A DNA stretch of 64,000 nucleotides. It comes from Candidatus Iainarchaeum sp. GTDB lineage: Archaea; Iainarchaeota; Iainarchaeia; Iainarchaeales; GCA-2688035. The stretch lies in NCBI GenBank assembly GCA_017610205.1, contig JAFCCL010000001.1:90805-154804 (forward strand). Reading direction: 5' to 3'. Shown piece after piece: positions 1-37,682 of this stretch. The position numbers and the translations under genes were made by a program. The notes below the pieces were generated by a model. It was given only the letters and a program-made list of their open reading frames with translations. It was not told where the DNA came from and did not search any database. Numbering within the stretch: position 1 is the first letter of the stretch; every line of letters starts with the position of its first letter.

Positions 1-936
1 TTTTCCAAGTTCTAAAATAGCAGAATAGCATTCTTTGCTTGAATTTTTCTTTATAACATCTATTTTTTCTTTCCGTTCTGTTTTTGGATGTGGAATAAAA
101 CGTTCTTTTGCCATTAATAATTTCATTTCCGGTGTTATTTTTCTTTTCAAAAAATTTGAAATCTTTTCAAGTTCTGGTTCTGGTTTTGTTGACAATAATT
201 CATATGTAAGAAAATGTATTCTTTTGCTATAGTTGTCAGGCAGTTTTTTTAAAGATTTTATACTCATTTTGTTCAAAGTTTGCATTGATGTGATTATTCG
301 GTCCATTTCTGACATTTTTGCATATTTATCAGTCCATTGGTATGCAAACCATGGTACTGGTCCATTTTTTCCTTTTATTGGAATGCTAAATACTTTTGGG
401 TCTTTGCCCCATCTTTTTCCATAACCTCTTTTAAACCAAGAGTATGTTAGATCAACAGGGTTTCTTTTGATTTTAATTACTTTTAATTTTGGGTAAATAT
501 CAAAAAAGAGTTTTATATTTGACATGGCTTCATGCAAAACAAACGGAAAAATTTTTTCGCTTTTTTTTATTTTTTGCACTGCTGAATCACCGTCTTCTTC
601 AAATAATCGTTTCATATAACTATCTGCCTTTGGAGAATTAGTGATGCTGCTTTTGTCAGAAAAACGAAAATTAAGATTTCGGCCAATTACCCTGTTATAA
701 ACAAAGTTATCAATTTGGCTTCCGATAATGGCTTTTGCAGTTTCTTTTTCAATAAATCCAAGCATATTTAGTTGTGAAATTTGTTCAGGTATACTAAAAT
801 ACAGGAATTTTTCGACATTTTCAAATCCTTCGATTAGGTTTGCTAAAAACATTTTTCCTGCTCTGGTGTGCCCGTCAAGAAAAATAATATTTTCAACAAG
901 TTTTGCTCTTTCACTTAAATGAATTTCTTTTGACAT
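1..936 (-). CDS. Sulfotransferase-family (PAPS-dependent, P-loop) protein; 3' end runs off the window
   Basis: Not in the ORF track because it has no stop in the window. Manual translation from ATG 936 gives MSKEIHLSERAKLVENIIFLDGHTRAGKMFLANL...IKRNPVDL...FLTYELL, resembling the 5'-PSB loop (G.xRSGT), 3'-PB (RDP.D) and YE.L motifs of sulfotransferases. The frame is open to position 1. Confidence 0.7.
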   Translation of the reverse strand, partial: MSKEIHLSERAKLVENIIFLDGHTRAGKMFLANLIEGFENVEKFLYFSIPEQISQLNMLGFIEKETAKAIIGSQIDNFVYNRVIGRNLNFRFSDKSSITNSPKADSYMKRLFEEDGDSAVQKIKKSEKIFPFVLHEAMSNIKLFFDIYPKLKVIKIKRNPVDLTYSWFKRGYGKRWGKDPKVFSIPIKGKNGPVPWFAYQWTDKYAKMSEMDRIITSMQTLNKMSIKSLKKLPDNYSKRIHFLTYELLSTKPEPELEKISNFLKRKITPEMKLLMAKERFIPHPKTERKEKIDVIKKNSSKECYSAILELGK

Positions 937-1072
937 TTATACAAACTCCTTTTTTGATAAGAAAATGTTTTTTAGTTATCTTATTTTTAAAATTTAATTA
1001 ACTAATAAATACTTTTTACTGCAAACATATATATATATTGATTTTTGGTGCATTTTCAATTTATAAATTTCT

Positions 1073-2857
1073 CTATTTTAACAATCTGATAATTCTTTCA
1101 GTTGCTTTTCCATCCTGTTTAAATCCAAATTCATATAAAAATTTGGCTACTTTTTTTTCATGGGCTTTTTTGTTATCTTTTTCTTTCAAAAACTTTTGAA
1201 TTGATTTCTTAAAGTTGTCTTTTTTTCCGGTAATTCTTTTAATTCCTTCAAAAAGAGTCTGGTCTTTAGTTTTTCTATAGATTGCTGTTGGCTTTTTTAA
1301 AGCCATTGCTTCAAGACCAATAATTGGTGAAATGGCTATTACTGCATCTGCACAGTTAATAAGCCGATGTAAATCTGTTTTATTTAAAAGAATTGCCTTT
1401 CCTTTGCTGTTTGTTATTATTTTAGCATAATCTTTTTTGTTTTCAAATGCGTGGATTTTAATAACAAGTTTTGTATTTTTGATTTCTTTTACTGCTTCCA
1501 TTGCTGCAGAAGCAATTTCAATTGGCAAAACTTTGTTTTTTTCAACTGGTTGGGTTACAAGTACCACCAACTTTTCTTTTTTGGAAACACCAATGCTTTT
1601 TCTAAAAGAATACCCGTTGGTTTTCTTGTTATACAAAACATCAAAGCGCGGAGACCCTGTAATAGAAATTTTTTTGCCAGGGACCATTTTTTTTTCCAAA
1701 TTTTTTTTGTAATGAGGTCCCCAAACAGCAATTTTGTCTGCTACAACTGGTGCAAACCCCCTTATGAAATCAGGTTGGTTTGTGTTTGCGCTGAAAAGTC
1801 CGTGTTGTACAACCACGCTTTTTGCATTAATTTTTTTTGCAAGAAGTACACAAATTCTTTCAAATGGAATCCAATCTTCCCAAACAACAACTGCACACGG
1901 CTTTTTTTCCTTAAACTCTTTCAAAAGCATTTCAATAAGGAAAACAAATTCTGGCCAGTCCCTTTCACTAAAGCGTGGCATGAATTTGAAAAAAACATCT
2001 GCGAAGTTAATGTCATTAAAAACCATTTTTTTTCTAAATTTTGATTTTTCAGAAAGTTCTTTGAAAAGTCCTTTGAAAAAAATTCTTTTTTCTTTTTTTG
2101 TTTTTACAAATCTTTTTGCATTCCATGGCATTAAAATTTTTCTTACAACAAAGTTGTCAAGTGAACTAACTGAAAAACTATTGTTTTTTTCAACTTCTTT
2201 TGAAAAGCGGTCTAGATAGCCATTACTTTTTACAAAAACAATATCTGCTCCGTTTTTTATGATTATTTTTTCTTTCAAAATTGAAAAAACTTTTTTTTGA
2301 AAATCTGCAATTTTTTTCTTGTTAAAATTTAATTTTCTTTTTTTTTCTAATGGTTGTTCTATTTCAATTTCTTTAAATCTTGCAGATGTTGCTTTTGCAA
2401 CTGCCTTTGCGCAGTCACTTGAAAAACTGTCTTTAATGCCAATAAAAGTTTTGGTTTTTTCACACTTTGCGGCATTAATGCCTGAGTTTATTGCAAGGAA
2501 AGTTTGTCTAAAAAGGTTGTAAATTGCAAAATCTGAAACAAAACCAAGTGAAATTTCTTTCATTGTGCTTGCCTGTTCGATTTTTTTGTCAAATTTGTAC
2601 CAATTTCTTGAAAAAAACAATGCCTTTTTATTAATAAAATAAAGTTCTCTATCTGAAACAAGGTCTGTTTCTTCAAAAACTTTAATGTTTTTTGCAAAAA
2701 TTCTTTGCCCTGGCCAAAATTCAAGACAAATGCATTTTATTATTACATTTGGTTTTTTTGCAGCAAATTTGAGAACTCCATCAAATTCTTTTCTGTTTGA
2801 AGCAAACGCAATAATGTTTTCCATTTTTTTTCTGTTTGAAGAAGTGATTTTTTCCAT
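1073..2857 (-). CDS. GT-B fold surface-carbohydrate biosynthesis protein (CDP-glycerol glycerophosphotransferase / capsule-biosynthesis-like C-terminal domain)
   Basis: 594 aa. C-terminal half has VVQHG, DKIAVWG, ITGSPRFD, VIKIH and LINCADAVI motifs typical of TagF/capsule polymerase-like GT-B proteins. Confidence 0.6.
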   Translation of the reverse strand: MEKITSSNRKKMENIIAFASNRKEFDGVLKFAAKKPNVIIKCICLEFWPGQRIFAKNIKVFEETDLVSDRELYFINKKALFFSRNWYKFDKKIEQASTMKEISLGFVSDFAIYNLFRQTFLAINSGINAAKCEKTKTFIGIKDSFSSDCAKAVAKATSARFKEIEIEQPLEKKRKLNFNKKKIADFQKKVFSILKEKIIIKNGADIVFVKSNGYLDRFSKEVEKNNSFSVSSLDNFVVRKILMPWNAKRFVKTKKEKRIFFKGLFKELSEKSKFRKKMVFNDINFADVFFKFMPRFSERDWPEFVFLIEMLLKEFKEKKPCAVVVWEDWIPFERICVLLAKKINAKSVVVQHGLFSANTNQPDFIRGFAPVVADKIAVWGPHYKKNLEKKMVPGKKISITGSPRFDVLYNKKTNGYSFRKSIGVSKKEKLVVLVTQPVEKNKVLPIEIASAAMEAVKEIKNTKLVIKIHAFENKKDYAKIITNSKGKAILLNKTDLHRLINCADAVIAISPIIGLEAMALKKPTAIYRKTKDQTLFEGIKRITGKKDNFKKSIQKFLKEKDNKKAHEKKVAKFLYEFGFKQDGKATERIIRLLK

Positions 2858-3955
2858 TCAATCACCTAAAATTGAGGCATATGCTGCAGCAGTTTGCTTT
2901 GCAGCCGCCTTCCAAAGGAATTTTTTTTCAATGTGCTTTCGCAATCCTGACTTGCTTCCGCTTACAAGAATTTTTTCAATTTTTTCCCTGATGTCACTAA
3001 TTCTTCCTGGATTAACGTAAAGGGCGTAGTTTTCAAAATATTCTTTGGTACAGCCTTCCTGTGTAATTATAATGTCTGCTCCTGCAAGTCCTGCTTCAAG
3101 AGCTGCAAGGCCAGGTGTTTCATACCAGCTTGGCAGTGCAAAAACCCTGCATGCAGCGTAGGCAGATGAAAGCAACTCATCGTTATGTAGCATGGGTTTT
3201 AGAAATACAACATCTTTTCCTGCCACTTCAAGACATTTTTTGTAATATTCACTGCTGTTTGATGTAGGTCCTCCAATAATTACAAGTTTTTCGTTTACTC
3301 CTTTCATTGCTTTAATCAGTGAAAGCACATTTTTTCTTTCCTCTATTCTTCCTACATACAGTACAAAATTCTTTAATCCAAATCTTTTTTCAAAAACTTC
3401 TGGTTTTGCTTTTGCAAACCTTGCATCAACACCGTTTCTTACAATGTGAATTTTTCTTTCATCTGCGTGAAAAATTTTTTTCAAAACATTTGCTTCTGCT
3501 TTGCTATTTGGTAGCAGAACATCTGCTGTTCTTACAATTTGTTTTGCTTTTGAAATTCCAATTCGTTTTGCAAGCTCTGCTGCAACAGCTTTTCCCTTTC
3601 CTTTCACTCCCTTGTTCCACAATATTGCGCTTTTAAGCGAAGGCCAGTAAATTGTACTTACTGCAATTGGAATTCCTGCTTTTTCTGCCTGCATTACAAA
3701 TGGGTAATTGTCTCTGTGAATGTTAAAATTGTGAAACAAATCAAATTCGGAAAAATCAACGGCGTAATCTTGTTCTTCAAGAATTTTTACTTCAAAGCCA
3801 AGATTTTCCAGCTCTTTTTTTGTTTCAAGTAATTGTATTTCTCCTCCGCCAGGGCTTTTGAAAGAGCCTGGTGAAGTGTTGAACAAAATTTTCTTTGCAG
3901 CTTTTGAATTTTTCTTCATTGCTTTTGAATCTTTCGTCCTTTTAGAATCTTTCAT
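2858..3955 (-). CDS. Glycosyltransferase family 4
   Basis: GGGEIQ, YVGRIEERKN, FALPSWYETPGLAALEA (ExxGxxxxE). Confidence 0.9.
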   Translation of the reverse strand: MKDSKRTKDSKAMKKNSKAAKKILFNTSPGSFKSPGGGEIQLLETKKELENLGFEVKILEEQDYAVDFSEFDLFHNFNIHRDNYPFVMQAEKAGIPIAVSTIYWPSLKSAILWNKGVKGKGKAVAAELAKRIGISKAKQIVRTADVLLPNSKAEANVLKKIFHADERKIHIVRNGVDARFAKAKPEVFEKRFGLKNFVLYVGRIEERKNVLSLIKAMKGVNEKLVIIGGPTSNSSEYYKKCLEVAGKDVVFLKPMLHNDELLSSAYAACRVFALPSWYETPGLAALEAGLAGADIIITQEGCTKEYFENYALYVNPGRISDIREKIEKILVSGSKSGLRKHIEKKFLWKAAAKQTAAAYASILGD

Positions 3956-6021
3956 TACGTTCGCCCCATTGCCTTTTTTGCCTTGTGCTTTAGTCCTCTT
4001 TTCAATGAATCAATTCTTTTGTCTTTTTCTGATTTAAATATTCTAATTTCAAGCCCTGATTTTAGCACTGCTCCAAACTTGGCTTTGTATGCAGGGCTTC
4101 CTCCAAGCAAATCAAATTCCTTAATGCCCCTGCTGCAGCAATATTCTATTGCCTTAATGAACAAAACATTTCCAATGCTCTGTTTTGGATTGTAATTTTT
4201 TCCAAATCCTATATTGAGTACACTAAATTTCTTTCCTTGTTCTATTGCCAAAAGAATTCCTGCAAGCTTGTTGTCAAGTTTTAGGTTTAGGAAACGCAAT
4301 TTTCCCTCTGCTGCTGCATTAAAGCAGGATTGTTTGTAGATTGCCCGAAACTCTTCCTCTTCCAACACCGTTTTTTCGCCTTTTCTTTCCATATTTTCAA
4401 AATGCAGTCTTAGGAAATCCTTCCATTGCTTTTCAAATTCTTTTGCGTTTGAAACAATCTCCACTTTAATTTTAAATTCTCTTCCAAGCCTGTTTAAATC
4501 GTTTCTTTGATTTTTTCGCAGTTTTTTCTTAAGTCCTGCCCAATATTTTTCCATTGTATTAGGAAGTTCTACTACTGCGCAGGCATCGCCTTGTTCTAAT
4601 GCAATTTCAATTCCTTCTTTTTTGCATTTTTCCTGCAGTGCTTTCATAAACAAGGGCTTGTCAACCAAATGTCTGAAGAAAATACTTTTCCAATCAGGGT
4701 TTGCAAAAACAAATTCAATAATTTTTTCAGCAACCTTTTTTTCTTTTCCTTTTTCTGACAAAAAGTCAAGGTGGTATGAAAAGTCCTGTGCCAACAGCCC
4801 AAGTTTTTTGTTTTCAACTGAAAAGAATGCAAGTCCCAATGGTTTTCCCTTGCTTCCTGCAATTGCAACCAATGCATTGCCTTTCTTTTCCTCTGCCATT
4901 ATCCAGGGCATTAGCCAGGAGGGTGATAGGAAAAAATTGTCTGACTTTTTGGCAAGCGAATTCCATTCCCTTTCAATGTCTTTAACTTTTCCGCCTGCTT
5001 CAAAACTTTCAGCGCAGCCTGCCTTTGTTCCTGTCGCTTTTGTACTTTTTGCTTTTGCACTGCCTGCCATTGCAGCATAGCCTTTGCTTTGGTAAAGCTT
5101 TCTTTTTGAAACAATGTCTTTTGTGTCCTTTAAATTAAGCCAGTAGGCTTCAATCAGCCATGGAAAGCGCATGCTGAAAGCATTTTTTCCAAGCCTTAGG
5201 CTTTCCCAAAATGCCGCCTTTGCAAGCCTTCTTTTTGGAAAATGCAAAAGCATATACCTTATTCTGTTTCTGTTCAATGCCAAAAACTTCCATTTGCTTG
5301 GTTGTGCATTTGTTGCAGCTGATTCATAGTGAATTATTTTGCTTTTTGGAGTAAACATTATTTTAAATCCGGCTTTTCTTGCCCTTGCACAGTAGTCCGA
5401 ATCCTCAAAATATATTGGAAAAAAGCCTTTGTCAAGTACTCCAATTGCATCAATTACTCTCCTTTTGACAAAAAATGCCCCTCCTGAAACCATTTCTGCT
5501 TCCCCTTCCTCTTTTTTGAAGCTGTCTCTTGAAATTCCCTTATTATCAACAAAGCCTGGTCCAAAAATCGTGTTTTTGTGCGCGGCGTTTGGAAACCATG
5601 GTCCAAGAATGCCAACATCCTGCCTTTTATCTGCAAGTTCAACCAATGGCTTAAGCCAGTTCTTTGTAACCTTTGTGTCATTGTTTAGCAGAAGAATAAA
5701 TTCTCCTTCAGAAACTTTTATTCCTGCATTGTTGCCTCCGCCAAAGCCAAGGTTTTTGCCACTAAGCACGAGCTTTTGCACCTTTCCATTTTTTTTCATT
5801 TTTTTGAGCAGTTCAATGCTTCCGTCAGTGCTTCCATTGTCTGAAACAACAATTTCAAATTTTTTGTATGAGGTGTTTTTCAGAATTGAATCAATGCAGT
5901 CTTTTAGAAAGTGCTTTCCATTCCAATTTAGAATAATAATCGAAACAAGTCCCTCTTTCACTGGCTTCATTTTTGAAACAATCCCTTTTTTCTCAGGCTT
6001 CATAGGCTCCATTTGCTTCAT
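3955..6021 (-). CDS. Fusion of a GT2 glycosyltransferase (WbbL-like) and a GNAT/FemAB-like (CelD/BcsL, Acetyltransf_6) domain
   Basis: N-half: SIIILNWNG, DNGSTDGS, LLNND, YFEDSDYC. Ala/Lys/Thr linker. C-half: NFFLSPSWLMPW, KKLRKNQR, SIGNVLF, FDLLGGSPAYKAKFG. Confidence 0.8.
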   Translation of the reverse strand: MKQMEPMKPEKKGIVSKMKPVKEGLVSIIILNWNGKHFLKDCIDSILKNTSYKKFEIVVSDNGSTDGSIELLKKMKKNGKVQKLVLSGKNLGFGGGNNAGIKVSEGEFILLLNNDTKVTKNWLKPLVELADKRQDVGILGPWFPNAAHKNTIFGPGFVDNKGISRDSFKKEEGEAEMVSGGAFFVKRRVIDAIGVLDKGFFPIYFEDSDYCARARKAGFKIMFTPKSKIIHYESAATNAQPSKWKFLALNRNRIRYMLLHFPKRRLAKAAFWESLRLGKNAFSMRFPWLIEAYWLNLKDTKDIVSKRKLYQSKGYAAMAGSAKAKSTKATGTKAGCAESFEAGGKVKDIEREWNSLAKKSDNFFLSPSWLMPWIMAEEKKGNALVAIAGSKGKPLGLAFFSVENKKLGLLAQDFSYHLDFLSEKGKEKKVAEKIIEFVFANPDWKSIFFRHLVDKPLFMKALQEKCKKEGIEIALEQGDACAVVELPNTMEKYWAGLKKKLRKNQRNDLNRLGREFKIKVEIVSNAKEFEKQWKDFLRLHFENMERKGEKTVLEEEEFRAIYKQSCFNAAAEGKLRFLNLKLDNKLAGILLAIEQGKKFSVLNIGFGKNYNPKQSIGNVLFIKAIEYCCSRGIKEFDLLGGSPAYKAKFGAVLKSGLEIRIFKSEKDKRIDSLKRGLKHKAKKAMGRT

Positions 6022-6872
6022 TTATGTAGCCTCCTTGAAATCTTTTTCTTTTCAACGCGCATTAACTGTCCTTTGTAAAATGATTTCATTTTCCTGTTTT
6101 TGCTTTTTTTGGCTTCTACAAAAACATTGTGTTCATTCCACGTTGTTTTTCTTTGCTTAAACTTTTTCTTTTTCCAAAAGTTAGCATACTCTGTCAGGTT
6201 TGTAAACCAAACGTCGTCAAGTTCCTTAACTTTTTCAAAAATCTTTTCAAGCACTTTTGGATGCGCTCCAATTCTTCCTGTGGGGTGCCCGTACAAAAAT
6301 ATCGGAATCTGTTTTTCGTAAAGCAGTTTAATTATTTTGTCAAAATATTCAATTGCCTCTTTTTCATTATAGCCTGATTCAAAAAGGCTTCCAAGGCAGA
6401 TTGGGTGAATTGGAACCTGAAGAACCTTTGACTTTTTTCCGTTACCCTTGGGGTAAAATGGAAATATGTTTTTTCCTTTTCTGAATTCACTGCTGTATTC
6501 ATATCCTGTTTTTTCCAGTGCACTTCCAAGTTCTTTGTTCCAAAACCCAAACGGTGCAGCAAAGCCGCTGCATTTAACACCCATTTCCTGCAGCAATTTA
6601 TCTCCCTTCATTATGTTCTCAAAATTTTTCACACTGTCCTTAAACGTTTCGTGAAGAAAAGCGTGGTTTTGCACATCCTGTGTTTTTGCAATTCTTTTTA
6701 TTTCGCGTTCGTGAAATTGGCCCGTTTCCATATTCACAAACCAGGTCATATCGATTTCGTGCTTTTCTGCAGCCTTCAAAGTTTTTTCAACGTGCTTTGG
6801 GTGAAAAAAATCAAGGTCTATTCTGAATGCAAAAATTCCCTTGTGGCCGTTGAATTCTTTTTTCTTTTCCAT
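6018..6872 (-). CDS. Polysaccharide deacetylase (NodB/CE4-like)
   Basis: FRIDLD, QNHAFLH, GFAAPFG, YSSEF and YGHP motifs. Confidence 0.8.
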   Translation of the reverse strand: MEKKKEFNGHKGIFAFRIDLDFFHPKHVEKTLKAAEKHEIDMTWFVNMETGQFHEREIKRIAKTQDVQNHAFLHETFKDSVKNFENIMKGDKLLQEMGVKCSGFAAPFGFWNKELGSALEKTGYEYSSEFRKGKNIFPFYPKGNGKKSKVLQVPIHPICLGSLFESGYNEKEAIEYFDKIIKLLYEKQIPIFLYGHPTGRIGAHPKVLEKIFEKVKELDDVWFTNLTEYANFWKKKKFKQRKTTWNEHNVFVEAKKSKNRKMKSFYKGQLMRVEKKKISRRLHK

Positions 6873-6874: not shown

Positions 6875-7972
6875 TTATTCCCTCAAAATTATTTCAACAA
6901 TCTTCTGGCTTGTCTTTCCGTCTCCAAAAGGGCATGGCTCTTTTTCAAGTCTTTTCTTCAATTCAGGGTAATTTTCCATTGCCTTTTTGCTTTCTTCAAC
7001 TATTTTTTCTTTGCAGTAGCCTGTCAGTCTTCCAAACTTTTCTAATATTTCTGGTCGTTCTGTATTGTCTCTTAGAATAACAATCCATTTTTTGTAAACG
7101 CTTGCCTCTTCCTGAATGCCTCCGCTGTCCGACAGCAAAAACATTGCGTTGCTTGCAAGCTTTAGAAAATCAAAATAGCCAGCTGGCTCAATAAACTGCA
7201 GGTTTGGAATTGCTTTTGCTTTTTTAAGCAAGTTAAATGCCGTAAGGTTCTTCAAAGTTCTTGGATGGGCAGGGAACACGACCTTTATGTCAATTTCTGC
7301 GATTGCTGAAAGTAATTCTTCCAAATTTTCTTTTTTGTCAACATATTCCTGTCTGTGGGCTGTAAGAACTGCATATTTTTCCGGCGTTAACCCAAGTGTT
7401 TCAAGAATTTTTGAGTCTTTTGCCTTTTCAAGGTTTTTTTGCACTGCTTCAACTATTGTGTTGCCTGTTAGGAAAATCTTGGCTTCCTCTATTTTATCAT
7501 CCTGCAAATGTTTTACTGCAATATCTGTTGGGGCAAAAGCATAATCTGCAAGTTTGTCTGCTTCAATCCTGTTTTTTTCTTCCGGCATTCTTTCATCAAA
7601 GCTTCTTAGCCCTGCTTCAACATGGGCAAATTTTGTGCCTATATCTTTTGCTGCAAGGGCTGCTGCAAGAACACTGTTTGTGTCCCCTTCTGCAATCACA
7701 ATTTCTGGTTTTTCTTTTAAAAAAAACTCACCCAGCTTTTTTTCCATTAGTGTAACCTGTTTTTCATTGCCTCCGCCGCTTATTCCTAAATTTATGTCAA
7801 TTTTTGGCAGTTCAAGTTCTTCCATAAAAATCTGGCAAAGGTTGTAATCATAATGCTGTCCTGTGAAAGCAATTACTGTTTTTGCTTCATGATGTTCTTT
7901 TAAAAGTCTTATGAGCTCTGCGAGTTTTATTATTTCTGGTCTTGTTCCAAGGACAATTGCAATTTTTTTCAA
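6875..7972 (-). CDS. wecB: UDP-N-acetylglucosamine 2-epimerase (non-hydrolysing)
   Basis: GTRPEIIK, TGQHYD, GDTNS, HVEAGLRS, PEEKNR, DSGGIQEEA, RDNTERPE. Confidence 0.93.
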   Translation of the reverse strand: MKKIAIVLGTRPEIIKLAELIRLLKEHHEAKTVIAFTGQHYDYNLCQIFMEELELPKIDINLGISGGGNEKQVTLMEKKLGEFFLKEKPEIVIAEGDTNSVLAAALAAKDIGTKFAHVEAGLRSFDERMPEEKNRIEADKLADYAFAPTDIAVKHLQDDKIEEAKIFLTGNTIVEAVQKNLEKAKDSKILETLGLTPEKYAVLTAHRQEYVDKKENLEELLSAIAEIDIKVVFPAHPRTLKNLTAFNLLKKAKAIPNLQFIEPAGYFDFLKLASNAMFLLSDSGGIQEEASVYKKWIVILRDNTERPEILEKFGRLTGYCKEKIVEESKKAMENYPELKKRLEKEPCPFGDGKTSQKIVEIILRE

Positions 7973-30632: not shown

Positions 30633-30640
30633 TTTATCAC

Positions 30641-31666
30641 CTACAAATCCTTAAACATTTTTTTATTTTCTTTAACCCACTCATAAAGTTTCTGAACTCC
30701 TTGCTTTGCTCCAATTTCGGGTTTCCAGCCTAAAATATTTTCTGCCTTTGAAATATCTGAAACATAAACAGGCTGGTCCCCAGGACGCCAGTCACTGTAT
30801 CTGATATCTATTTTTTTTCCAAAAAATTCTTCAAGATATGCCAACAGCTCAAGCAATGACATTGTGTTTTTGGGGCCTCCGCCTATATTGAATATCTGGC
30901 CTTTTGCCTTTTCAATTTTTTGTGTAGCAATAGCGTATGCTTTTACAAGGTCGTCAATATGCAGCACATCCCTTACCTGCTTTCCGTTGCCGTAAATTGT
31001 AAGCTTTTTCCGAAGTGCTGACGCAATAGTAAACCATGCAACCCACCCCTGGTCTTCTATTCCAAACTGCCTTTGGCCATAAATGCAGCTTTGCCTAAAC
31101 ACAACTGTGTTCATGCCATAAATTCTTGCATAATCCCTAGTATACTGGTCAGCACACCCTTTGCTGCAACCATAAGGGCTATGAAAATCCAAATTTGTTG
31201 ATTCGGAAATTCCTTTTGGAAAATCTTCATATTCATACCTGTTATTTCTTTCAATAACCTTTACTTCTTCCATTCCGCCATAAACCTTGTTTGTGCTGCT
31301 GTAAAAAAATGCAGCTTTGTCAGCATTTTTTCTTAGGGCTTCAAGGACATTAAATGTTCCAAGTGCATTCTCTTCAAAGTCCTTTCTTGGTTCTGTTACA
31401 CTTGTTGTAACCGCCACCTGTGCCGCAAAATGGTAAACAGCATCACTGCCTTTTACAGTTTCCTCAAGCTGCTTTTGATCTGTTACAATATCTGCTTTAA
31501 TAACTTTTATGTTTTCGTGTCTTTGTTTAAGCCATTCAACATTTTCTTTATAGCCAGGTCTTGAAAAATTATCAAATATAATTACTTTTTTGCAGCTTTT
31601 TGCAAATTTATCCGCAAGGTTGCAGCCGATAAATCCTGCGCCTCCGGTAATAACTATTTTTTCCAT
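30641..31666 (-). CDS. CDP-paratose 2-epimerase-like SDR (RfbE/Tyv family)
   Basis: AAQVAVTTS, STNKVYG, HSPYGCSKG, RQSCIYG, EDQGWVAWF, WRPGDQ. Start at ATG 31666. Confidence 0.85.
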   Translation of the reverse strand: MEKIVITGGAGFIGCNLADKFAKSCKKVIIFDNFSRPGYKENVEWLKQRHENIKVIKADIVTDQKQLEETVKGSDAVYHFAAQVAVTTSVTEPRKDFEENALGTFNVLEALRKNADKAAFFYSSTNKVYGGMEEVKVIERNNRYEYEDFPKGISESTNLDFHSPYGCSKGCADQYTRDYARIYGMNTVVFRQSCIYGQRQFGIEDQGWVAWFTIASALRKKLTIYGNGKQVRDVLHIDDLVKAYAIATQKIEKAKGQIFNIGGGPKNTMSLLELLAYLEEFFGKKIDIRYSDWRPGDQPVYVSDISKAENILGWKPEIGAKQGVQKLYEWVKENKKMFKDL

Positions 31667-31750
31667 CAATTCACCAATTATTTTATTCAATTACTATCAA
31701 TCTATTGGAAAATTCATCTTAAATACCATTTTGGTGCAATATTCAAATTC

Positions 31751-32464
31751 CTATTGCATTTTTTTAATGAACTTTTTGCCAACTGCCTTAACCTGTTTTG
31801 GCATTCCAAACCTGATGTTTGCCTTGCTTACTGTTGTAAAAAAATTCTTAAGAAGCAAAACATGCCTGTTTGCAATCCTTTCCCTAACACTGTTTTTTTC
31901 AACCTTTTCAGCAAACGTAATTGAGTCAACAAAACCAATGTTTCTAAAATGCCTTGATTTGAAAACACTGTCTTCCACAACCCTTTTTGGCCCGTCTACA
32001 AGCATTGTGTCATGAAAAGCCATTATTCCCTGCTCCCTGACTTTTGGAAACCATAATTCAAAATCCTGCTTTGCATGCTTGTAAGAATGGTCCCCGTCAA
32101 TGAAAATAAGTGCAATTTCTTTTCCAAATTCTTTTGCGGCATCTTCAGAGGTTTTAACAACAGGCTTTACTAAATCAAATGCCTTTGCTGCCTTAAGGTT
32201 TTGCTTAAATTCCTTAAAGCTGTTTCCCTGCGGCATCTCCGGCGAGCTTGTATGGGGGTCAATTGCAACAATCTTTTTTCTCTGTCCATCCTTGCTTCCT
32301 TTTGCAAGCCATATGGTTGAACGGCCTTTCCAGCTTCCAATTTCTACAATTTCTCCATTTCCACTGCATTCCCTGGCAAGCCTGTACAAAAGAATTCCCT
32401 CTGGCTTTGAAAGAAAACCAGGTGCCTTCATTGCCCATTTTTCAGCTTCCTTTAATGACATCAT
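31751..32464 (-). CDS. Class I SAM methyltransferase (Methyltransf_24-like)
   Basis: VEIGSWKGRST, AIDPH, FIDGDHSY, AFHD. Confidence 0.88.
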   Translation of the reverse strand: MMSLKEAEKWAMKAPGFLSKPEGILLYRLARECSGNGEIVEIGSWKGRSTIWLAKGSKDGQRKKIVAIDPHTSSPEMPQGNSFKEFKQNLKAAKAFDLVKPVVKTSEDAAKEFGKEIALIFIDGDHSYKHAKQDFELWFPKVREQGIMAFHDTMLVDGPKRVVEDSVFKSRHFRNIGFVDSITFAEKVEKNSVRERIANRHVLLLKNFFTTVSKANIRFGMPKQVKAVGKKFIKKMQ

Positions 32465-32540: not shown

Positions 32541-33467
32541 TTAGAACAATTTTGCCTTCCTTTTCTTTCTTTGTTTCAAAACTTCCTGCCAGTTTGCAAT
32601 ATTTTCCGCATATGTTCCAAGCAAGTGCATTGTCATTCCCTGTTCAAAACTGTTTAAAAAAATAAGTCCCAATCCAGGTACGTGTTTTGCCATATCACCC
32701 AGGCTTAAATTGTAAAGCATTACTCTAATCCTATTTCTTTCAAGCAATTTGTACCTTGCAATTGCCTTGATGCTTTTTGTTGTGTCCTGCCCGCCAATAT
32801 GGTAAACTCTGCTTGCATTTGTTTCAACTACCTTAAACCCGGCATTTCTTGCCCTGTAGCACCAGTCCTGTTCCTCTCCATAAATGGGTGACCAAAGCCT
32901 TGCGTCAAGGTTTCCAACCCTCTTCAATGCTTTTTTCGAGTACATCATTGCCGCTCCGCACACAGCAAGCCTTTCCCTTACAACTTCCTGCCCTTTAAGT
33001 CCTTTCCCATAATTTTTTTTGCCAACAATAAGGCTTCCAACAGCACCAACCATTCCCTTTAGGTCTTCAGCTGCTTCAACAGCCTTTGAAAGCCATTTTT
33101 TTTCAACAAGGGTATCATTATCCAAATGGTAAATATACTTTCCCCTGCTTTCCTTAAACCCCTGGTTTACTCCGTTGCTATAGCCAACATTTTTTTTGTT
33201 CAAAACAAGCTTTTTTACAATTCTCCTGCGCTTCATTTCCTTTAACATCTTCACGCTTCCATCAGTACTTCCGTTGTCTACAACAATAATTTCATAATTT
33301 GGATAGCTTGTGTTTTTTTGAACAGACTTAATACAATCAGCAGTAAGCTTTTTTCCATTCATGTTCAAAAGCATTACGCTTACAAGCGTATTTGCAACCC
33401 TGCTTGAGTTTTTTGAACCCTTGCTTGTTTTTTTTGTACTTTTGCTTGATTTTTTTGCAGCACTCAT
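32541..33467 (-). CDS. Glycosyltransferase family 2
   Basis: DNGSTDGS, HLDND, EEQDWCYRA; K/S-rich N-terminal extension. Confidence 0.9.
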   Translation of the reverse strand: MSAAKKSSKSTKKTSKGSKNSSRVANTLVSVMLLNMNGKKLTADCIKSVQKNTSYPNYEIIVVDNGSTDGSVKMLKEMKRRRIVKKLVLNKKNVGYSNGVNQGFKESRGKYIYHLDNDTLVEKKWLSKAVEAAEDLKGMVGAVGSLIVGKKNYGKGLKGQEVVRERLAVCGAAMMYSKKALKRVGNLDARLWSPIYGEEQDWCYRARNAGFKVVETNASRVYHIGGQDTTKSIKAIARYKLLERNRIRVMLYNLSLGDMAKHVPGLGLIFLNSFEQGMTMHLLGTYAENIANWQEVLKQRKKRKAKLF

Positions 33468-34425: not shown

Positions 34426-35463
34426 CTAAAAAAGCCTGAAGTATGAAATTGAAAATACTATTATGCTTAGTATTGCTTGTGCAAGCAAAATTATTTCAAC
34501 AACCTTTTTTTCAGTAAAGCGCCCTATTCCCATAATAATATGTGTTACGCTTGCAGTATATTTTGGAGCCTTTAAAATTCCTGATTTTGTTGGAATTCCA
34601 AAACTTTGCCTTTGCATTCTGTATCTTGCCTTAAGCACTAGCTCAATAAAGTAAATTCCTAAAAGCAATATTCCTATTTTTTCCATGTTTCCCAAAATTG
34701 CTGTTGTTGCAATACTTGCCCCAATCATCAAAGTAAGCGAGTCGCCTCCAAACACTTTTGCCGGGAACCAATTAAATCGAAGGAATGCTATTAGTGCACC
34801 AAGCATTGCAATTGAAACAATCGCTGCCTCCATTTGTCCCTGAGTTAAGGCAACTGCGAGCATTGTGGTAGAAATTATTGCACCAAGTCCTGCTTCAAGC
34901 CCGTTTAAACCAGCAAGCATGTTTGTTGCATTGCTTGCTCCGGTAACTCCTATTGGGACAAAAATAAGGCTGTAAATTAACCCAAAGCTTACCACTCCAA
35001 TAAAAGGTATTACAATTTCTGCTGGTGCAAAGCCAAAAAACGGAATTGATATTGGAGGATTGCTTATTTCTATTGCCATAAGTGGCAATGCTGCAAAGAC
35101 AGGTATGAGAGCATGCTGCCATTGTCTTATGCCCTTTCTCCATCCTATAAGGTCGTCAATTACTCCCAAAAATCCAACCATTACAATTGTGCTAAATCCT
35201 GCAAGCAAAAAGGTCAGGTTTATTTCAATCCATTCAAGGTATGAAAACATAAAAATGCTTACAATAATTCCCGCACTAAAGCCAAGCCAGACACATATTC
35301 CGCCCATTTCCGAAATTTTGGGCTTGTTAAACTTGTTCATGTCAATGCCGGTAATATGCCTTGCCTTCATTCTTGCAATTAAAAACGGCAAAAATTTGTT
35401 TGTTACAATAAATGCTACAAAAAAACACAAAAGCAGTGTTGCAATAACAGCAGGCATAGGCAT
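34426..35463 (-). CDS. aglH: UDP-GlcNAc:polyprenyl-phosphate GlcNAc-1-phosphate transferase (AglH/Alg7-like)
   Basis: GIDMNK, EMGG, GVIDD, NATNMLAGLNGLEAG, FNWFPAKVFGGD; polytopic. Confidence 0.85.
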   Translation of the reverse strand: MPMPAVIATLLLCFFVAFIVTNKFLPFLIARMKARHITGIDMNKFNKPKISEMGGICVWLGFSAGIIVSIFMFSYLEWIEINLTFLLAGFSTIVMVGFLGVIDDLIGWRKGIRQWQHALIPVFAALPLMAIEISNPPISIPFFGFAPAEIVIPFIGVVSFGLIYSLIFVPIGVTGASNATNMLAGLNGLEAGLGAIISTTMLAVALTQGQMEAAIVSIAMLGALIAFLRFNWFPAKVFGGDSLTLMIGASIATTAILGNMEKIGILLLGIYFIELVLKARYRMQRQSFGIPTKSGILKAPKYTASVTHIIMGIGRFTEKKVVEIILLAQAILSIIVFSISYFRLF

Positions 35464-35549
35464 AATTAATCAGCTTTAAGGATTTAAAAAGAAACCATTC
35501 TATTTTTGTAACAACCCAAAGCACATTTTTTCAGCAAAAAAGCCATTGC

Positions 35550-37682
35550 CTAATTTGCATAAAGTGCTTCTTTGTTTACCTTGAATATTCTCATTCCGGC
35601 TGCATTAAAAACTTCGCCAAAGTATTTCATTGTCTCATCTTCGTGGAACCAAAGCTTTGAAAGCATGCTTTCGTTTACAGCAGGATTTGTAATATAAAGC
35701 TCTGAATTGTCCTCTGCTCTATAAACATACAATGGAACAACTCCCTCATACATCTGGTTTGAAACACTTGTCCATTTTGCAGGAATAGTTCCCATTTGAT
35801 CTGCAGGAATATTATTTGTTCCACATGCAAACCCTGCTTCGCTTTGACTGCAAGGCATTGCAGCATGCGGTGCAACAAGGAATTGTATTATGCGAGGGTC
35901 GCTGCTGTCCATTGTATCATACCCATAATTTCCAAAAGACCCGATTTTGAGGAATGTATCACTGTCAAGTACGATATAATCAAAATCATAGTCTCTTGCA
36001 ATTTTTAACGCATTTTCAAGGCTGCTTTCAATAACAAAAAGTGAAAAGTCGCGGTTTCCCTCAAAACTCATATTCCTGTTATCAGCAGAAACCGCCCTTT
36101 CTCCAATAAAACTAATCCAATGCCCTTCATCCCACCAGTTGAAAAATTTTGCATCCTCAGGAGTGTTTGCAGGGTCCTGCATCCAGTGCAGTGTTGCCTT
36201 CCAGTCAGGATAACCGCCTTCAATGTGCGGAACCTTGTCTGGCACAAAAATTGTAGCAGAAGCAATTCCAACCAAAAGCATAAAGCCAAGGCAAAGCACA
36301 ACAAGCTTTTGCTCAAGGTCTGTTCTTCCTTTAAGGTAATAAAACATTTCTGCAGCAATCACACCAGCAGCTGCCGCTATTGGCAGGCCAAAAGTGTAAG
36401 TGAATTTGAGCTTGTACCACGCCATAAAAAAAGTAATCATTATCCAAAAGAAAATCAAGACACTAAGATGGTCTTTTTTGTTCCTGTAAAACATTATTGG
36501 AATCAAAATCATTGCAAGCCATGGGAAAATAATTAATGCATTATATTTTATTCCAAAAAACTGGTGGCCGGTGTTTTCCTCCCCAACAGTCATTCCAAGA
36601 ACCGAGTTTTCCTCAAACAATTTCGGGGTTGTCATAAAAGTAAGAGCCAGTGAAATTACTGCAATATAAAGCAAAACAACTGCAATAATATTAATTGTTT
36701 TATTTCCTGATTTTCTTTTGCCAACCTCCCTGTTTGCATAAGCAAGATACACTATAAATGCTCCGATTGCAAGAACAACTGCGACTGCTGCCGAAAAACC
36801 CATTGCTTCAGGCATTCCAAAAGCCGCTGCCGCCTTTGAAACAGAATTTGTTGCATAACTCAAAGCACTAGTATGCCAGTTTGCGCCATAATTTAATGCA
36901 GCAATTACCCAAAAAATAACAAAAGAAATTGCAAAAAGCTTAACAAAATCAACAAGCTTTTTGAAACCCATTTTTGTATAAATCCCAATCACACCAAAGA
37001 AAACATAAAGCCCTAATACCAGAGGGATAAGCAAGTACATATCCCAGGTTATTGCCATTAATCCAAAGAAAATTCCAGAAAGCACTGCATTAATTATTCC
37101 CTTTTTATTAAACACAGGATTCTTAACTGCTCTTGCAAAGAAAACCAATCCAATCACAAGCCACAAAAACCCAAGGCTGTCTTCTTCAAAAAAACCTGCA
37201 AGCGTTCTGTAAACATAGCTTGGAATAACAGCCGCAATCAAGGCCATTACATAGCCTGCTTTTTTGTTGTAAAGTTCCTTTCCAAAGAAAAACATTGCAG
37301 CAACAGTTAATGCCCCAAAAAGAGCCGGCAAAATTTTAACAAACAATATCCAGGTGTCCTTATCATAAGGCGCTCCCAAAGTTGCAACCTTATAAATGCC
37401 TGCAGTAAACTGCCAAAAGAACTGGTTTCTTGGAGGAGCAACTCCTCCTTCAACAAAATAATATGCAGTTGGATCAACAGCAGGAACAACCCCTGTTTGC
37501 AAAAGCTCTCCAGTCATCCTTGCATGGTAATAGGAATCAAAACCAAACATATACTCATACTTTAAAAGATGCCCTCTTACGCCAAAAGCAAGAGCAAAAA
37601 TCAAAAAAAGCAGAAAAAGCTGTTTTCTGTCAACATTCTTTATTTTGCCAACAATGTCAGATGCATTAACAAGCTCAGGCAT
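35550..37682 (-). CDS. aglB: Oligosaccharyltransferase AglB (STT3)
   Basis: FDSYYHAR, GFFEED, TVGEE (TIxE-like), WWDEGHWI (WWDxG); multi-TM N-terminal domain followed by a soluble domain. Confidence 0.88.
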   Translation of the reverse strand: MPELVNASDIVGKIKNVDRKQLFLLFLIFALAFGVRGHLLKYEYMFGFDSYYHARMTGELLQTGVVPAVDPTAYYFVEGGVAPPRNQFFWQFTAGIYKVATLGAPYDKDTWILFVKILPALFGALTVAAMFFFGKELYNKKAGYVMALIAAVIPSYVYRTLAGFFEEDSLGFLWLVIGLVFFARAVKNPVFNKKGIINAVLSGIFFGLMAITWDMYLLIPLVLGLYVFFGVIGIYTKMGFKKLVDFVKLFAISFVIFWVIAALNYGANWHTSALSYATNSVSKAAAAFGMPEAMGFSAAVAVVLAIGAFIVYLAYANREVGKRKSGNKTINIIAVVLLYIAVISLALTFMTTPKLFEENSVLGMTVGEENTGHQFFGIKYNALIIFPWLAMILIPIMFYRNKKDHLSVLIFFWIMITFFMAWYKLKFTYTFGLPIAAAAGVIAAEMFYYLKGRTDLEQKLVVLCLGFMLLVGIASATIFVPDKVPHIEGGYPDWKATLHWMQDPANTPEDAKFFNWWDEGHWISFIGERAVSADNRNMSFEGNRDFSLFVIESSLENALKIARDYDFDYIVLDSDTFLKIGSFGNYGYDTMDSSDPRIIQFLVAPHAAMPCSQSEAGFACGTNNIPADQMGTIPAKWTSVSNQMYEGVVPLYVYRAEDNSELYITNPAVNESMLSKLWFHEDETMKYFGEVFNAAGMRIFKVNKEALYAN

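Follow-up and report, generated by a model that had tools for sequence, protein, structure and literature searches.

Radical SAM enzymes wired to glycosyltransferases in a surface-glycan island of an Iainarchaeia genome point to an undescribed modification of cell-surface sugars

The window, that is, the whole 64,000-nucleotide stretch of DNA analyzed here, carries the right-hand half of a surface-glycan island that lies beside aglB in a 1.37-Mb Iainarchaeia genome (Table 1). The preliminary description had assigned the island at least 37.7 kb and allowed for a reduced-genome archaeon; the organism is indeed one, a member of the DPANN, its named matches being Candidatus Diapherotrites/Iainarchaeum, whereas the size was understated, because the island continues to the left of the window, ends at about C3:50.8-51.9 kb and spans ~77 kb, or 5.6% of the genome. 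Its right edge is AglB, and ribosomal L10e comes next. The gene classes named in the preliminary description (AglB, AglH, Alg14/Alg13, glycosyltransferases (GTs), sulfotransferase, AlkP enzyme, deacetylase and methyltransferases) were all detected by Pfam at or near the expected places. Pfam analysis of the window revealed nine Leloir GT2/GT4 genes and a weak PMT_2-like GT-C gene; Wzx-type flippases are also among the island genes, and the sulfation module runs on to the left of the window with an APS kinase and a PHP phosphoesterase (Pfam APS_kinase, PHP). The island is a mosaic that contains an IS200-type transposase and a homing-endonuclease-like gene, and the left end of the window is low in GC (0.30-0.33). 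The LAGLIDADG/HTH gene, inserted between rmlA and rmlB, encodes a protein found at the same position in two other loci (L007 and L037; 61% identity) and is a passenger outside the pathway.

Table 1. Features of the window up to its aglB gene, with the evidence for each assignment.
Feature	Coordinates	Strand	Evidence
Sulfotransferase, cut by window edge	1..936	-	Pfam Sulfotransfer_1, 40.7 bits
Epimerase_2/glycerophosphotransferase-like "surface carbohydrate biosynthesis" protein	1073..2857	-	PF02350 + PF04464; TIGR04396 61.6 bits, below cut-off
GT4	2858..3955	-	Pfam Glycos_transf_1
GT2 fused to Acetyltransf_6 (GNAT-like) domain	3955..6021	-	Pfam
Polysaccharide deacetylase	6018..6872	-	Pfam Polysacc_deac_1
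UDP-GlcNAc 2-epimerase (WecB type)	6875..7972	-	Pfam Epimerase_2, 311 bits
Alkaline-phosphatase-superfamily phosphodiesterase	7969..9414	-	Pfam Phosphodiest, 128.6 bits
GT4	9448..10554	-	Pfam
Membrane GT2, conserved partner of rSAM1	10551..11525	-	Pfam, hydropathy, AF2
FkbM-family methyltransferase	11549..12484	-	Pfam Methyltransf_21; TIGR01444 109.8 bits, above cut-off
rSAM1, HpnJ-like radical SAM + B12-type domain	12481..13950	-	Pfam; TIGR03471
RmlA (glucose-1-phosphate thymidylyltransferase-like)	13947..14684	-	NTP_transferase 188.9 bits; TIGR01208 240.7 bits, below cut-off
Free-standing LAGLIDADG/HTH protein	14684..15628	-	Pfam LAGLIDADG_3 + HTH_50
RmlB, dTDP-glucose 4,6-dehydratase	16072..17049	-	TIGR01181 448.6 bits, above cut-off (365.1)
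rSAM2, radical SAM + B12-type domain	17230..18750	+	Pfam
rSAM3, radical SAM + B12-type domain	18837..20390	+	Pfam
Putative GT-C (PMT_2-like) membrane glycosyltransferase, weak	20463..21713	-	PMT_2 23.8 bits, below cut-off (26.1)
NAD-dependent sugar epimerase/dehydratase	22093..23013	-	Pfam Epimerase, 166 bits
GT2	23055..24062	-	Pfam
rSAM4, SPASM-like radical SAM	24059..25153	-	Pfam Radical_SAM + Fer4_12
rSAM5, radical SAM + B12-type domain	25150..26640 (first ATG 26562)	-	Pfam
GT2 like dolichyl/polyprenyl-phosphate hexose synthases	26613..27485	-	DPhHxTase_Halo, PpgS, AglJ (NCBIfam), all below cut-off
GT2	27451-28341	-	Pfam
GT4	28346-29464	-	Pfam
Two NAD-dependent sugar epimerase/dehydratase genes	29517..31690	-	Pfam
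Methyltransf_24/CmcI-like O-methyltransferase	31751..32464	-	Pfam
GT2	32541..33467	-	Pfam
Alg13-like half of split GT28	33464-33964	-	Pfam Glyco_tran_28_C
Alg14-like half of split GT28	33964-34425	-	Pfam Alg14
AglH-type phospho-sugar transferase (PF00953)	34426..35463	-	Pfam Glycos_transf_4, 114 bits
AglB oligosaccharyltransferase	35550..37712	-	Pfam STT3 + AglB_core-like

Eight radical SAM (rSAM) enzymes are encoded in the island, six with a B12 domain and two SPASM-like. The island thereby holds 8 of the 29 radical SAM domains of the genome and all six of its B12-binding domains; by our own arithmetic, with the tandem pair rSAM2/rSAM3 taken as one locus, the odds of five B12-rSAM loci falling in one such stretch by random placement are ~6e-7. 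The four B12-binding rSAM genes previously described in the window were all borne out by Pfam, and the left flank outside the window adds two further ones (C3:52983-54419 and C3:73757-75283) and a true SPASM rSAM (C3:76744-77886). The motif CX3CX2C is present in all eight proteins and DxHxxG in none of the eight. The gene at 24059, rSAM4, had been described as a SPASM enzyme; it does match Radical_SAM, but the Pfam SPASM model gave no match at E<=1e-3. We refer to it as SPASM-like because its C-terminal part has seven Cys and because SPASM was found in 3 of 15 scanned proteins of its family (P0254, P0261 and P0311).

The 4-bp overlaps reported between these genes and their neighbors were confirmed at four junctions, namely rmlA/rSAM1 (GTGA), rSAM1/FkbM (TTGA, which therefore depends on a TTG start), rSAM5/rSAM4 (ATGA) and rSAM4/GT2 (23055..24062; ATGA). 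By contrast, the junction of GT2 (26613) with rSAM5 is a 50-bp gap when measured from the first rSAM5 ATG. The conserved N-terminus of rSAM5 extends in frame upstream of this ATG, to ~26640, overlapping the 3′ end of the GT2 gene, and start analysis found no canonical start (ATG/GTG/TTG) for it.

HpnJ (TIGR03471) was by far the best NCBIfam model for rSAM1, matching it end to end with 419.8 bits (cut-off 577.6), while the next model gave 168 bits; judged from sequence, the rSAM1 family is probably a highly conserved sister family of this hopanoid enzyme. Among 8000 scored sequences, 4049 matched rSAM1 at E<=1e-3, every one of the best 120 with at least 53% identity, and 549 relatives were found in species genomes of archaea and bacteria. 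Of the 121 class genomes sampled, 71 carry an orthologue, as do 42 of the 50 of high quality; a manual comparison of 13 genomes that have just one B12 domain placed this domain in the rSAM1 orthologue every time. Within the lineage, rSAM1 is the core rSAM that has been conserved. Its predicted structure (AF2; pLDDT 85.7) matched the folds of AprD4, MgmA, TsrM and OxsB, the best match being AprD4 (PDB 6FD2) over the whole length (TM 0.73/0.78, 19% identity). A sequence comparison with the PDB likewise put AprD4 first for the radical SAM core (residues 192-406; E 1e-24), and the N-terminal domain matched the cobalamin-binding enzymes OxsB, TokK and CysS.

A GT2 gene lies within 700 bp of rSAM1 in 52 of 80 loci (43 of the 60 with full flanks, from archaea and bacteria) and, by our own reading of the synteny listing, within 3 kb in 55 of 60. 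The 12 loci annotated with Pfam all proved to be glycan contexts with an adjacent GT2, their genes including Bac_transf, AglH, Alg13/14, Wzx/MurJ, Wzy, GT4, GT9, NeuB and Poly_export, and hopanoid or lipid genes were found in none of the 12. The linkage of homologues to GT loci, on which the preliminary description had staked its reading, is thus strong and is accompanied by gene fusions. Since GT2 genes are frequent in glycan loci, part of the rSAM1-GT2 adjacency is context only. AglH/Alg14/Alg13 genes adjoin rSAM1 in 7 of 80 loci, and rSAM1 and FkbM form one uninterrupted ORF in two related contigs. rmlA (at least 50% identity) is found up to 1.2 kb upstream of rSAM1, with rmlB alongside, in 17 of 80 loci, a linkage limited to Iainarchaeia; in many Iainarchaeia loci GT4 (9448..10554) is kept directly downstream of the rSAM1-GT2 pair (tblastn synteny, 37-60% identity). 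The partner GT2 consists of a GT-A domain and, by hydropathy, 2-3 C-terminal TM helices, and its AF2 model (pLDDT 94.8) was closest to PcManGT 6YV7 and hyaluronan synthase (TM 0.76). Among NCBIfam models it is not HpnI-like, its best match being MftF (150 bits), and five bacterial loci (L050, L065, L066, L073 and L076) encode it as a fusion with the priming transferase Bac_transf.

The other rSAM genes are more scattered. rSAM2 and rSAM3 are tandem paralogues (55% identity); the best NCBIfam match of rSAM2 is BchE (119.6 bits, far below cut-off), and rSAM3 orthologues occur in 5 of 121 class genomes, the source genome included. rSAM5 is best matched by the Sden_1168 family (198 bits against a cut-off of 575) and has an orthologue (70% identity) in just one other class genome; of 59 metagenome loci with distant relatives of it, only 8 have a DPM-like GT2 nearby. 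The rSAM4 family has 923 representatives at E<=1e-30, and all 11 long relatives scanned were GT2-rSAM fusions with the GT2 domain in front; in 14 of 16 fusions this domain was closest to the partner GT2 of rSAM1. We propose, on thin neighborhood evidence for rSAM2/3 and rSAM5, that rSAM2/3, rSAM5 with rSAM4, and the two left-flank rSAMs are patchily distributed accessory decorators. Their neighbors include Dol-P-sugar-synthase-like GT2s and GT-C-like genes, which makes sugars linked to dolichol phosphate a possible substrate.

No genes for cobamide synthesis, remodelling or the known importer BtuCD were found in the genome. Considering that B12-dependent NrdJ is present in 52 of 121 class genomes and CobS in 0 of 121, cobamide scavenging is real in the lineage. 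The earlier suggestion that this archaeon may scavenge cobamide agrees with both observations, but NrdJ is present in 0 of 9 genomes of its own family, and the lack of a recognizable supply calls a methylcobalamin mechanism into question. According to its published description, AprD4 has a Rossmann-like domain yet binds no cobalamin; with AprD4 as the best structural match, the modeled fold would weaken the case for cobalamin dependence of rSAM1.

The island resembles the agl N-glycosylation loci of Haloferax, Methanococcus and Sulfolobus in its AglB, AglH-type priming, Alg13/14-type second step, many GT2/GT4 genes, Wzx-type flippases, methyltransferases and sulfation route, and differs from them in its size and share of the genome. 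We know of no characterized archaeal agl locus that uses radical SAM enzymes, and full-text literature searches turned up no published example. MoeK5, GenK and Fom3, likened here by description only, are class B radical SAM enzymes for sugar-type substrates, MoeK5 being thought to methylate a lipid-linked sugar, but they belong to antibiotic pathways rather than protein glycosylation. In a published review, Fom3, MoeK5 and HpnJ co-localize in a similarity network. The HpnJ-HpnI/HpnK system (bacteriohopanetetrol cyclitol ether) likewise has a B12-type rSAM, matched by rSAM1 over the full length of the model, beside a GT2 and on a probably membrane-anchored sugar. However, rSAM1 scores below the equivalog cut-off, its partner is not an HpnI, its loci have no conserved HpnK-type deacetylase and serve protein/polysaccharide glycan assembly (0 of 12 hopanoid loci), and its family also occurs in archaea, which to our knowledge make no hopanoids. 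HpnJ is genetically tied to the conversion of lipid-linked glucosamine to cyclitol and is a proposed non-methylating ring-contraction enzyme. A contraction of lipid-linked hexose to a carbocyclic cyclopentane polyol has been proposed for an archaeal radical SAM enzyme, the calditol synthase Cds of Sulfolobus acidocaldarius, likened by description only; there the substrate is a membrane-lipid head group and homologues are tied to acidophiles, unlike the rSAM1 family. AprD4, a radical SAM 1,2-diol dehydratase of apramycin biosynthesis, is a sugar-acting rSAM (an aminosugar, from the PDB title) with the best fold for rSAM1, but its low identity and core-restricted sequence match set it apart.

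What we observed are the genes of the island with their conservation, neighbors, fusions and folds, together with the missing cobamide genes; the substrate, step order, chemistry and any use of cobalamin are our inference. We somewhat favor the view that the island rSAMs are built-in sugar-tailoring enzymes, each paired with a neighboring glycosyltransferase, that act on lipid-linked glycans. In the core module, rmlB-rmlA-rSAM1-FkbM-GT2(10551)-GT4, RmlA and RmlB would provide dTDP-(6-deoxy)hexose, and the membrane-embedded GT2 would attach a sugar to the oligosaccharide on dolichol shortly after AglH and Alg13/14 have acted. rSAM1 would then take hydrogen from the added sugar via a 5'-deoxyadenosyl radical and change its carbon skeleton, after which FkbM would O-methylate the product and GT4 extend it. 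For this reaction we tentatively put a rearrangement or ring contraction of the HpnJ type first. The preliminary description had suggested C-methylated, branched or otherwise unusual sugars. Nothing found speaks for C-methylation in particular: the proposed role of HpnJ is non-methylating, and the NCBIfam methylase models PhpK, Sden_1168, HpnR, KedN5 and TIGR03975 all score far below cut-off. C-methylation ranks second, as a possible reaction, and an AprD4-kind dehydration or oxidation would be a doubtful third. The coupling of rSAM1 to rmlA in about 17 Iainarchaeia loci fits a dTDP-sugar as well as a lipid-linked one.

It is rather unlikely that the rSAMs instead tailor cytoplasmic nucleotide-activated sugars (e.g., dTDP-4-keto-6-deoxyglucose) before any GT acts, in the manner of DesII or Fom3, which act on nucleotide-linked substrates (a CMP-linked one for Fom3), so that GT2 merely transfers a finished unusual sugar. 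The GTGA overlap, rmlA and rmlB at 17 of 80 loci, an RmlB above the equivalog cut-off and, in the review's network, the placement of HpnJ with Fom3 all agree with such a route. Against it, the partner kept across domains is a membrane GT2, fused in bacteria to a priming transferase, whereas rmlA is an Iainarchaeia-only neighbor; relatives of rSAM4 carry a membrane GT2 domain in the same polypeptide, and HpnJ, the closest family, is thought to work after glycosyl transfer.

Modification of lipids, with either dolichol as the carrier or the ether lipids of the membrane as the target, as by GrsA/B, Tes, Gms/Gmm and the hopanoid methylases, had been the alternative offered in the preliminary description, and we consider it improbable. 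In its favor, the genome encodes GGGP synthase and makes its own lipids, the partner GT2s are membrane proteins, and lipid enzymes (HpnJ, HpnR, the ladderane B12-rSAM and Tes) are among the weak NCBIfam matches. Against it stand the glycan surroundings found in archaea and bacteria alike and the scores themselves, all far below cut-off (ladderane, 96-131 bits vs 360; Tes, 65.9 vs 450; HpnR, 67-112 vs 650), and HpnJ acts on a sugar head group rather than the lipid. In addition, the family is common to bacteria without archaeal lipids, none of the 12 annotated loci has lipid genes, and the fusions are to glycosyltransferases and a sugar-type O-methyltransferase. Ordinary, unrelated peptide, cofactor or tRNA rSAMs gathered in a variable, horizontally shuffled region would fit the mosaic island, with its transposase, homing-endonuclease-like gene and low-GC left end of the window, and the weak matches to ApyD, BchE, BzaD and NirJ. 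These scores are nowhere near cut-offs, however, the fusions argue for coupling, and the 4-bp overlaps with sugar genes, the GT2 adjacency kept across domains and the confinement of all six B12-domain genes to one glycan island also count against this explanation, which is already disfavored and very improbable.

Tailoring of lipid-linked glycans by rSAMs paired with glycosyltransferases is thus the reading we retain, and the GT-wired rSAMs of the island point to radical chemistry on cell-surface sugars of a kind not yet described.

The B12-type radical SAM protein rSAM1 aligned from end to end with the equivalog model of HpnJ (TIGR03471) at 419.8 bits, and its next-best NCBIfam family was BchE, at 168 bits. 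Both rSAM1 and a left-flank B12-type protein (287 bits) differ from HpnJ in staying below the equivalog cut-off of 577.6. The rSAM1 family is large, with 4049 proteins at E ≤ 1e-3 among 8000 scored, at least 53% identity to rSAM1 in all of the top 120 matches, and 549 relatives in species-representative genomes. Archaeal relatives were found in Iainarchaeia, Aenigmatarchaeota and Hydrothermarchaeota, and the bacterial ones, at about 50% identity, include many anaerobes (Scalindua/Brocadiaceae, Chloroflexota, Desulfobacteria, Fibrobacterota, Omnitrophota and Nitrospirota). Within the class Iainarchaeia, rSAM1 orthologues (E ≤ 1e-100) were present in 71 of the 121 sampled genomes and in 42 of the 50 high-quality ones; in genomes with a single B12 domain, compared by hand, that domain lay in the rSAM1 orthologue in 13 of 13. 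rSAM3-type genes occurred in 5 of the 121 genomes and a close rSAM5 orthologue (70% identity) in one other genome. The wide spread of rSAM1 against the rarity of rSAM3 and rSAM5 marks rSAM1 as the conserved core and the other radical SAM enzymes as variable decoration.

In a 20-sequence alignment of the rSAM1 family, the cysteines of the CX3CX2C motif (C216, C220 and C223) were invariant, and so were four more (C310, C314, C354 and C438). Five longer homologues (P0121-P0125) contain inteins (Intein_splicing plus LAGLIDADG_3), located at the third cysteine of the motif in four of them and near C310/C314 in the other, which underlines the strong constraint on these sites. The genomes compared are metagenome bins, with organism labels as deposited. 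Three rSAM1 loci labelled Chloroflexi/Chloroflexota or Thaumarchaeota (L004, L005 and L010) showed 74-83% identity to this island and the same gene order, rmlB-rmlA-rSAM1-FkbM-GT2-GT4; they are probably mis-binned or mislabelled, the two fully syntenic "Chloroflexi" contigs at 83% identity being probably archaeal.

To follow the preliminary description, which had tied its glycan reading to linkage with glycosyltransferase loci, we compared the window genes by tblastn with 80 rSAM1 loci, 60 of which extend for 1.3 kb or more to either side. Such linkage was found: a GT2 gene lay within 700 bp of rSAM1 in 52 of the 80 loci and 43 of the 60 well-flanked ones, and within 3 kb in 55 of the latter, as read from the table of hits (L039, L061, L068, L071 and L083 being without). 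An orthologue of the GT2_10551 type (at least 40% identity) was found within 700 bp in 32 of the 80. Pfam annotation of 93 neighbour proteins at 12 loci (three archaeal, nine bacterial) placed a GT2 next to the radical SAM gene in all 12, in contexts of glycan assembly (AglB/AglH/Alg13/Alg14, Bac_transf, Wzx/MurJ, Wzy, GT4, GT9, NeuB and Poly_export). This set of 93 included no genes of hopanoid or lipid pathways, and the absence of shc, hpnH, hpnI and hpnK sets the rSAM1 loci apart from the neighbourhood of HpnJ. AglH/Alg14/Alg13 stood beside the rSAM1-GT2 pair in 7 of the 80 loci.

Gene fusions were found in the same families. The GT2 orthologue was fused to the priming transferase Bac_transf in five bacterial loci, and the two proteins most similar to rSAM1 (83% identity) were rSAM1-FkbM fusions, with uninterrupted frames in both contigs. 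The rSAM4 family comprised 923 representatives at E ≤ 1e-30, and 16 of its top 150 were proteins of 618-741 aa; all 11 of these long relatives that were scanned proved to be GT2-rSAM fusions, and GT2_10551 was the nearest to the GT2 portion in 14 of the 16 long proteins. A longer bacterial cassette, made up of a B12-rSAM, a SPASM-type rSAM, DUF218, a further rSAM, rSAM1, GT2 and a methyltransferase, was observed in L046, L055, L075 and partly L043, with SPASM detected in L046 and L055.

GT2_10551, the rSAM1 partner, consists of a GT-A domain followed by two or three C-terminal transmembrane helices. The best structural matches of its model (pLDDT 94.8) were Pyrobaculum PcManGT and hyaluronan synthase (TMq up to 0.76), and in sequence the protein resembles chain-extending GT2s more than Dol-P-sugar synthases. 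We rejected a Dol-P-sugar synthase on the grounds of this fold and of the PDB sequence scores (157 bits for K4CP versus 61 for DPMS and about 48 for GtrB/ArnC). A transplanted HpnI/HpnJ pair was rejected as well, the partner GT2 having no HpnI match in NCBIfam.

The island proved to be about 77 kb long, twice the minimum of 37.7 kb proposed earlier, and takes up 5.6% of the 1.37-Mb genome (24 contigs, 92% complete), in which the window spans C3:90805-154804. ORF calling and Pfam searches of the flank placed its left end at about C3:51 kb, beyond which lie aromatic-amino-acid and purine housekeeping genes. Judging from its protein relatives, the organism is a DPANN archaeon, because all named ones belong to "Candidatus Diapherotrites/Iainarchaeum".

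Features of the glycan island and its contig (positions without a prefix are window positions; C3 is the contig that contains the window)
Feature	Position	Strand	Location or remark
rSAM1, B12-type radical SAM	12481-13950	-	window
rSAM2, B12-type radical SAM	17230-18750	+	window
rSAM3, B12-type radical SAM	18837-20390	+	window
rSAM4, SPASM-like radical SAM	24059-25153	-	window
rSAM5, B12-type radical SAM	25150-26640	-	window
GT2_10551, membrane GT2	10551-11525	-	window
FkbM	11549-12484	-	window
AglB	35550-37712		right edge of island
LAGLIDADG/HTH gene	14684-15628	-	between rmlA and rmlB
B12-rSAM	C3:52983-54419		left flank; HpnJ model 287 bits
B12-rSAM	C3:73757-75283		left flank
True SPASM rSAM	C3:76744-77886		left flank
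ArnC-like and AglJ-like GT2s; two further weak PMT_2-like genes			left flank
UDP-glucose dehydrogenase; DegT aminotransferase; CMP-sugar-type cytidylyltransferase; carbamoyltransferase			left flank
DUF6044 protein	C3:56608-58293		adjoins HpnJ-like rSAM
IS200-type (Y1) transposase gene	C3:59452-59991		within glycan island
Sulfation module	C3:84,000-91,700		spans window start
APS kinase	C3:90223-90759		sulfation module
Sulfotransferase	1-936		sulfation module
936-aa protein (PKD, Big_7, fn3)	C3:44094-46904		just beyond left island edge
Radical SAM cluster, four hits	C3:222,600-229,500		no B12 domains
Radical SAM cluster, three hits	C19:21,200-27,700		another contig; no B12 domains

Every gene class that had been described between 1 and 37712 was confirmed with Pfam and NCBIfam. 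Besides AglB, AglH, Alg14 and Alg13, this stretch encodes nine GT2/GT4 glycosyltransferases and one weak PMT_2-like GT-C, RmlA, RmlB (448.6 bits, above the NCBIfam cut-off), WecB and three more sugar epimerase/dehydratases, the methyltransferases FkbM and CmcI-like, a sulfotransferase, an AlkP-type phosphodiesterase, a deacetylase, and four B12-binding radical SAM proteins with one further radical SAM. Its designation as an agl locus was likewise upheld by STT3 with AglB_core, PF00953, Alg13/14 and GT2/GT4 in the window, together with two Wzx-type Polysacc_synt (flippase) genes in the left flank. The 4-bp overlaps were recovered at rmlA/rSAM1 (GTGA), rSAM5/rSAM4 (ATGA) and rSAM4/GT2 (ATGA), but the GT2/rSAM5 junction is not of this kind; the rSAM1/FkbM overlap (TTGA) depends on a TTG start. 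Contig C3 carries all six of the B12-binding domains that the genome encodes, two of them left of the window, and of a total of 29 radical SAM domains in the genome the island holds 8. The six B12-type proteins share 23-37% identity, except for the tandem pair rSAM2/rSAM3 (55%), and this pair apart they are anciently diverged. The genome's two other radical SAM clusters lie outside the island.

Several further features of the region were recorded. The DUF6044 protein (595 bits, full length) has an ArnC-like GT2 and an epimerase directly before it, and may be a membrane glycosyltransferase. The sulfation module also includes a PHP-family phosphoesterase and four ORFs with no Pfam match. GC content is 0.30-0.33 at window positions 1-4000 versus 0.35-0.40 elsewhere, which fits a segment of the island that is variable and has possibly been exchanged. 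The 936-aa protein is a candidate surface glycoprotein. The free-standing, homing-endonuclease-like LAGLIDADG/HTH gene has a counterpart (61% identity) at the same site in two more Iainarchaeia contigs (L007 and L037). A tRNA scan found no tRNA genes in the 64-kb window.

Each of the six B12-domain proteins has one CX3CX2C motif, and all six matched the B12-binding domain PF02310 at 41.7-96 bits (cut-off 32.1). The rSAM1 profile aligned through the N-terminal domain with OxsB, TokK and CysS, and with AprD4 in the core only; the N-terminal alignment supports a genuine cobalamin domain. The predicted rSAM1 structure (pLDDT 85.7, pTM 0.87) best matched the sugar diol-dehydratase AprD4 (TM 0.73/0.78), followed by the cobalamin enzymes MgmA, TsrM, OxsB, CysS and TokK (TMq 0.64-0.70). 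DxHxxG was absent from all six proteins, and we know of no sequence signature for cobalamin that is actually bound and used.

rSAM4 gave no match to the SPASM domain PF13186 at E ≤ 1e-3. It has seven C-terminal cysteines, SPASM was detected in its relatives P0254, P0261 and P0311, and its NCBIfam alignments to SPASM maturases, all below cut-off, extend to about residue 325. At 26562-26700 (minus strand), codons for the conserved N-terminus of rSAM5 (including KPIVLINPP) precede the first ATG in the same frame and overlap the GT2 gene at its 3′ end. No ATG, GTG or TTG is present between the position of the homologues' ATG (here ACG) and the upstream stop; the start codon may be non-canonical or may have been lost, or the assembly may be wrong here. 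A metagenome scan with the rSAM5 alignment retrieved mostly distant paralogues (31-40% identity), with 20 of 79 loci closer to rSAM1, and says little about the orthologous context of rSAM5.

We analyzed the genomes for a supply of cobalamin, absence being stated for the genomes sampled at their given completeness. A search of the organism's own genome (92% complete) for cob/cbi and btu genes, as the preliminary description had advised, found no recognisable cobamide synthesis or import: CobS, CbiB, CbiC, a FecCD/BtuC-type permease, PduO-type and CobA-type adenosyltransferases and NrdJ were all missing. The sole ECF transporter module was rejected as a cobalamin importer; it adjoins a RibL-like FAD synthetase gene, and riboflavin is the more likely substrate. 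Across the class, B12-binding domains occurred in 87 of the 121 genomes, with up to 15 in one genome of about 1.2 Mb. The B12-dependent ribonucleotide reductase NrdJ was above cut-off in 52 of the 121, whereas CobS was found in none and FecCD was above cut-off in two; NrdJ was found in none of the nine further genomes from the same family as the window. Judging by this gene content, the NrdJ-bearing relatives must scavenge cobalamin by an unrecognised uptake route, which makes real cobalamin use by the island enzymes plausible. Precedents for cobalamin-free activity are AprD4 and ArsL, which passages of PMC12931638 describe as cobalamin-free members of the B12-type radical SAM network.

The island enzymes scored far from other curated families: 65.9 bits for Tes (NF045702; cut-off 450), 76-131 for the ladderane B12-rSAM (TIGR04072; cut-off 360) and 67-112 for HpnR (cut-off 650). 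By model score, they lie outside HpnJ and every curated methylase or lipid-enzyme family tested. According to passages in PMC13459092 and PMC9204698, HpnJ is a non-methylating member of class B of the radical SAM enzymes; deletion of hpnJ abolishes the bacteriohopanetetrol cyclitol ether, and HpnJ is proposed to contract the ring of a glucosamine put on by the GT2 HpnI, calditol synthase being proposed to act alike on a lipid-linked hexose. In a similarity network described in the same passages, HpnJ groups with Fom3 and MoeK5 at a stringent threshold (PMC13459092, PMC9204698). The island enzymes plausibly work like HpnJ or MoeK5, by radical modification of a membrane-anchored sugar beside its transferase; substrate and chemistry are throughout what we infer. 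For rSAM1, sequence alone cannot separate three options: we tentatively place rearrangement first, C-methylation close behind it, and dehydration third as the least likely.

If rearrangement is taken together with the partner enzymes, the product of the rSAM1-GT2 pair on the lipid-linked glycan core would be a carbocyclic pseudo-sugar in ether linkage, formed from the sugar that the GT2 adds and similar to the calditol or cyclitol ethers, and FkbM would then O-methylate this unit, giving the N-glycans of these cells a link proof against glycosidases and acid. The B12-type enzymes would either be active without cobalamin or depend on an unknown uptake route in DPANN archaea. That the rSAM1-GT2 pair makes a carbocyclic ether unit in N-glycans and that one of these cobalamin alternatives holds is, taken jointly, improbable.

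Methylation or rearrangement of sugars by B12-type radical SAM enzymes is known from a few pathways to antibiotics and hopanoids; to our knowledge, no such enzyme has been described from protein N-glycosylation or from the general assembly of surface polysaccharides, and no characterised agl locus of an archaeon is known to employ radical SAM enzymes. Full-text searches that covered radical SAM enzymes in N-glycosylation by archaea, glycosylation in DPANN archaea, C-methylation of polysaccharides and the glycans of Iainarchaeia found no relevant paper. The radical SAM enzymes described here are a conserved part of the glycan machinery, and the rSAM1 family, near-core in an archaeal order and found as well in hundreds of anaerobic bacteria that have not been cultured, is tied to a membrane GT2. 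The occurrence of B12-type enzymes, and of NrdJ in relatives, without recognisable cobamide synthesis or import makes the cobalamin supply of ultra-small symbionts directly testable. If our reading is true, C-C rearrangement or C-methylation would be a new class of chemistry for cell-surface glycans, and the HpnJ reaction, still uncharacterised, would gain in rSAM1 a model that is soluble and well conserved.
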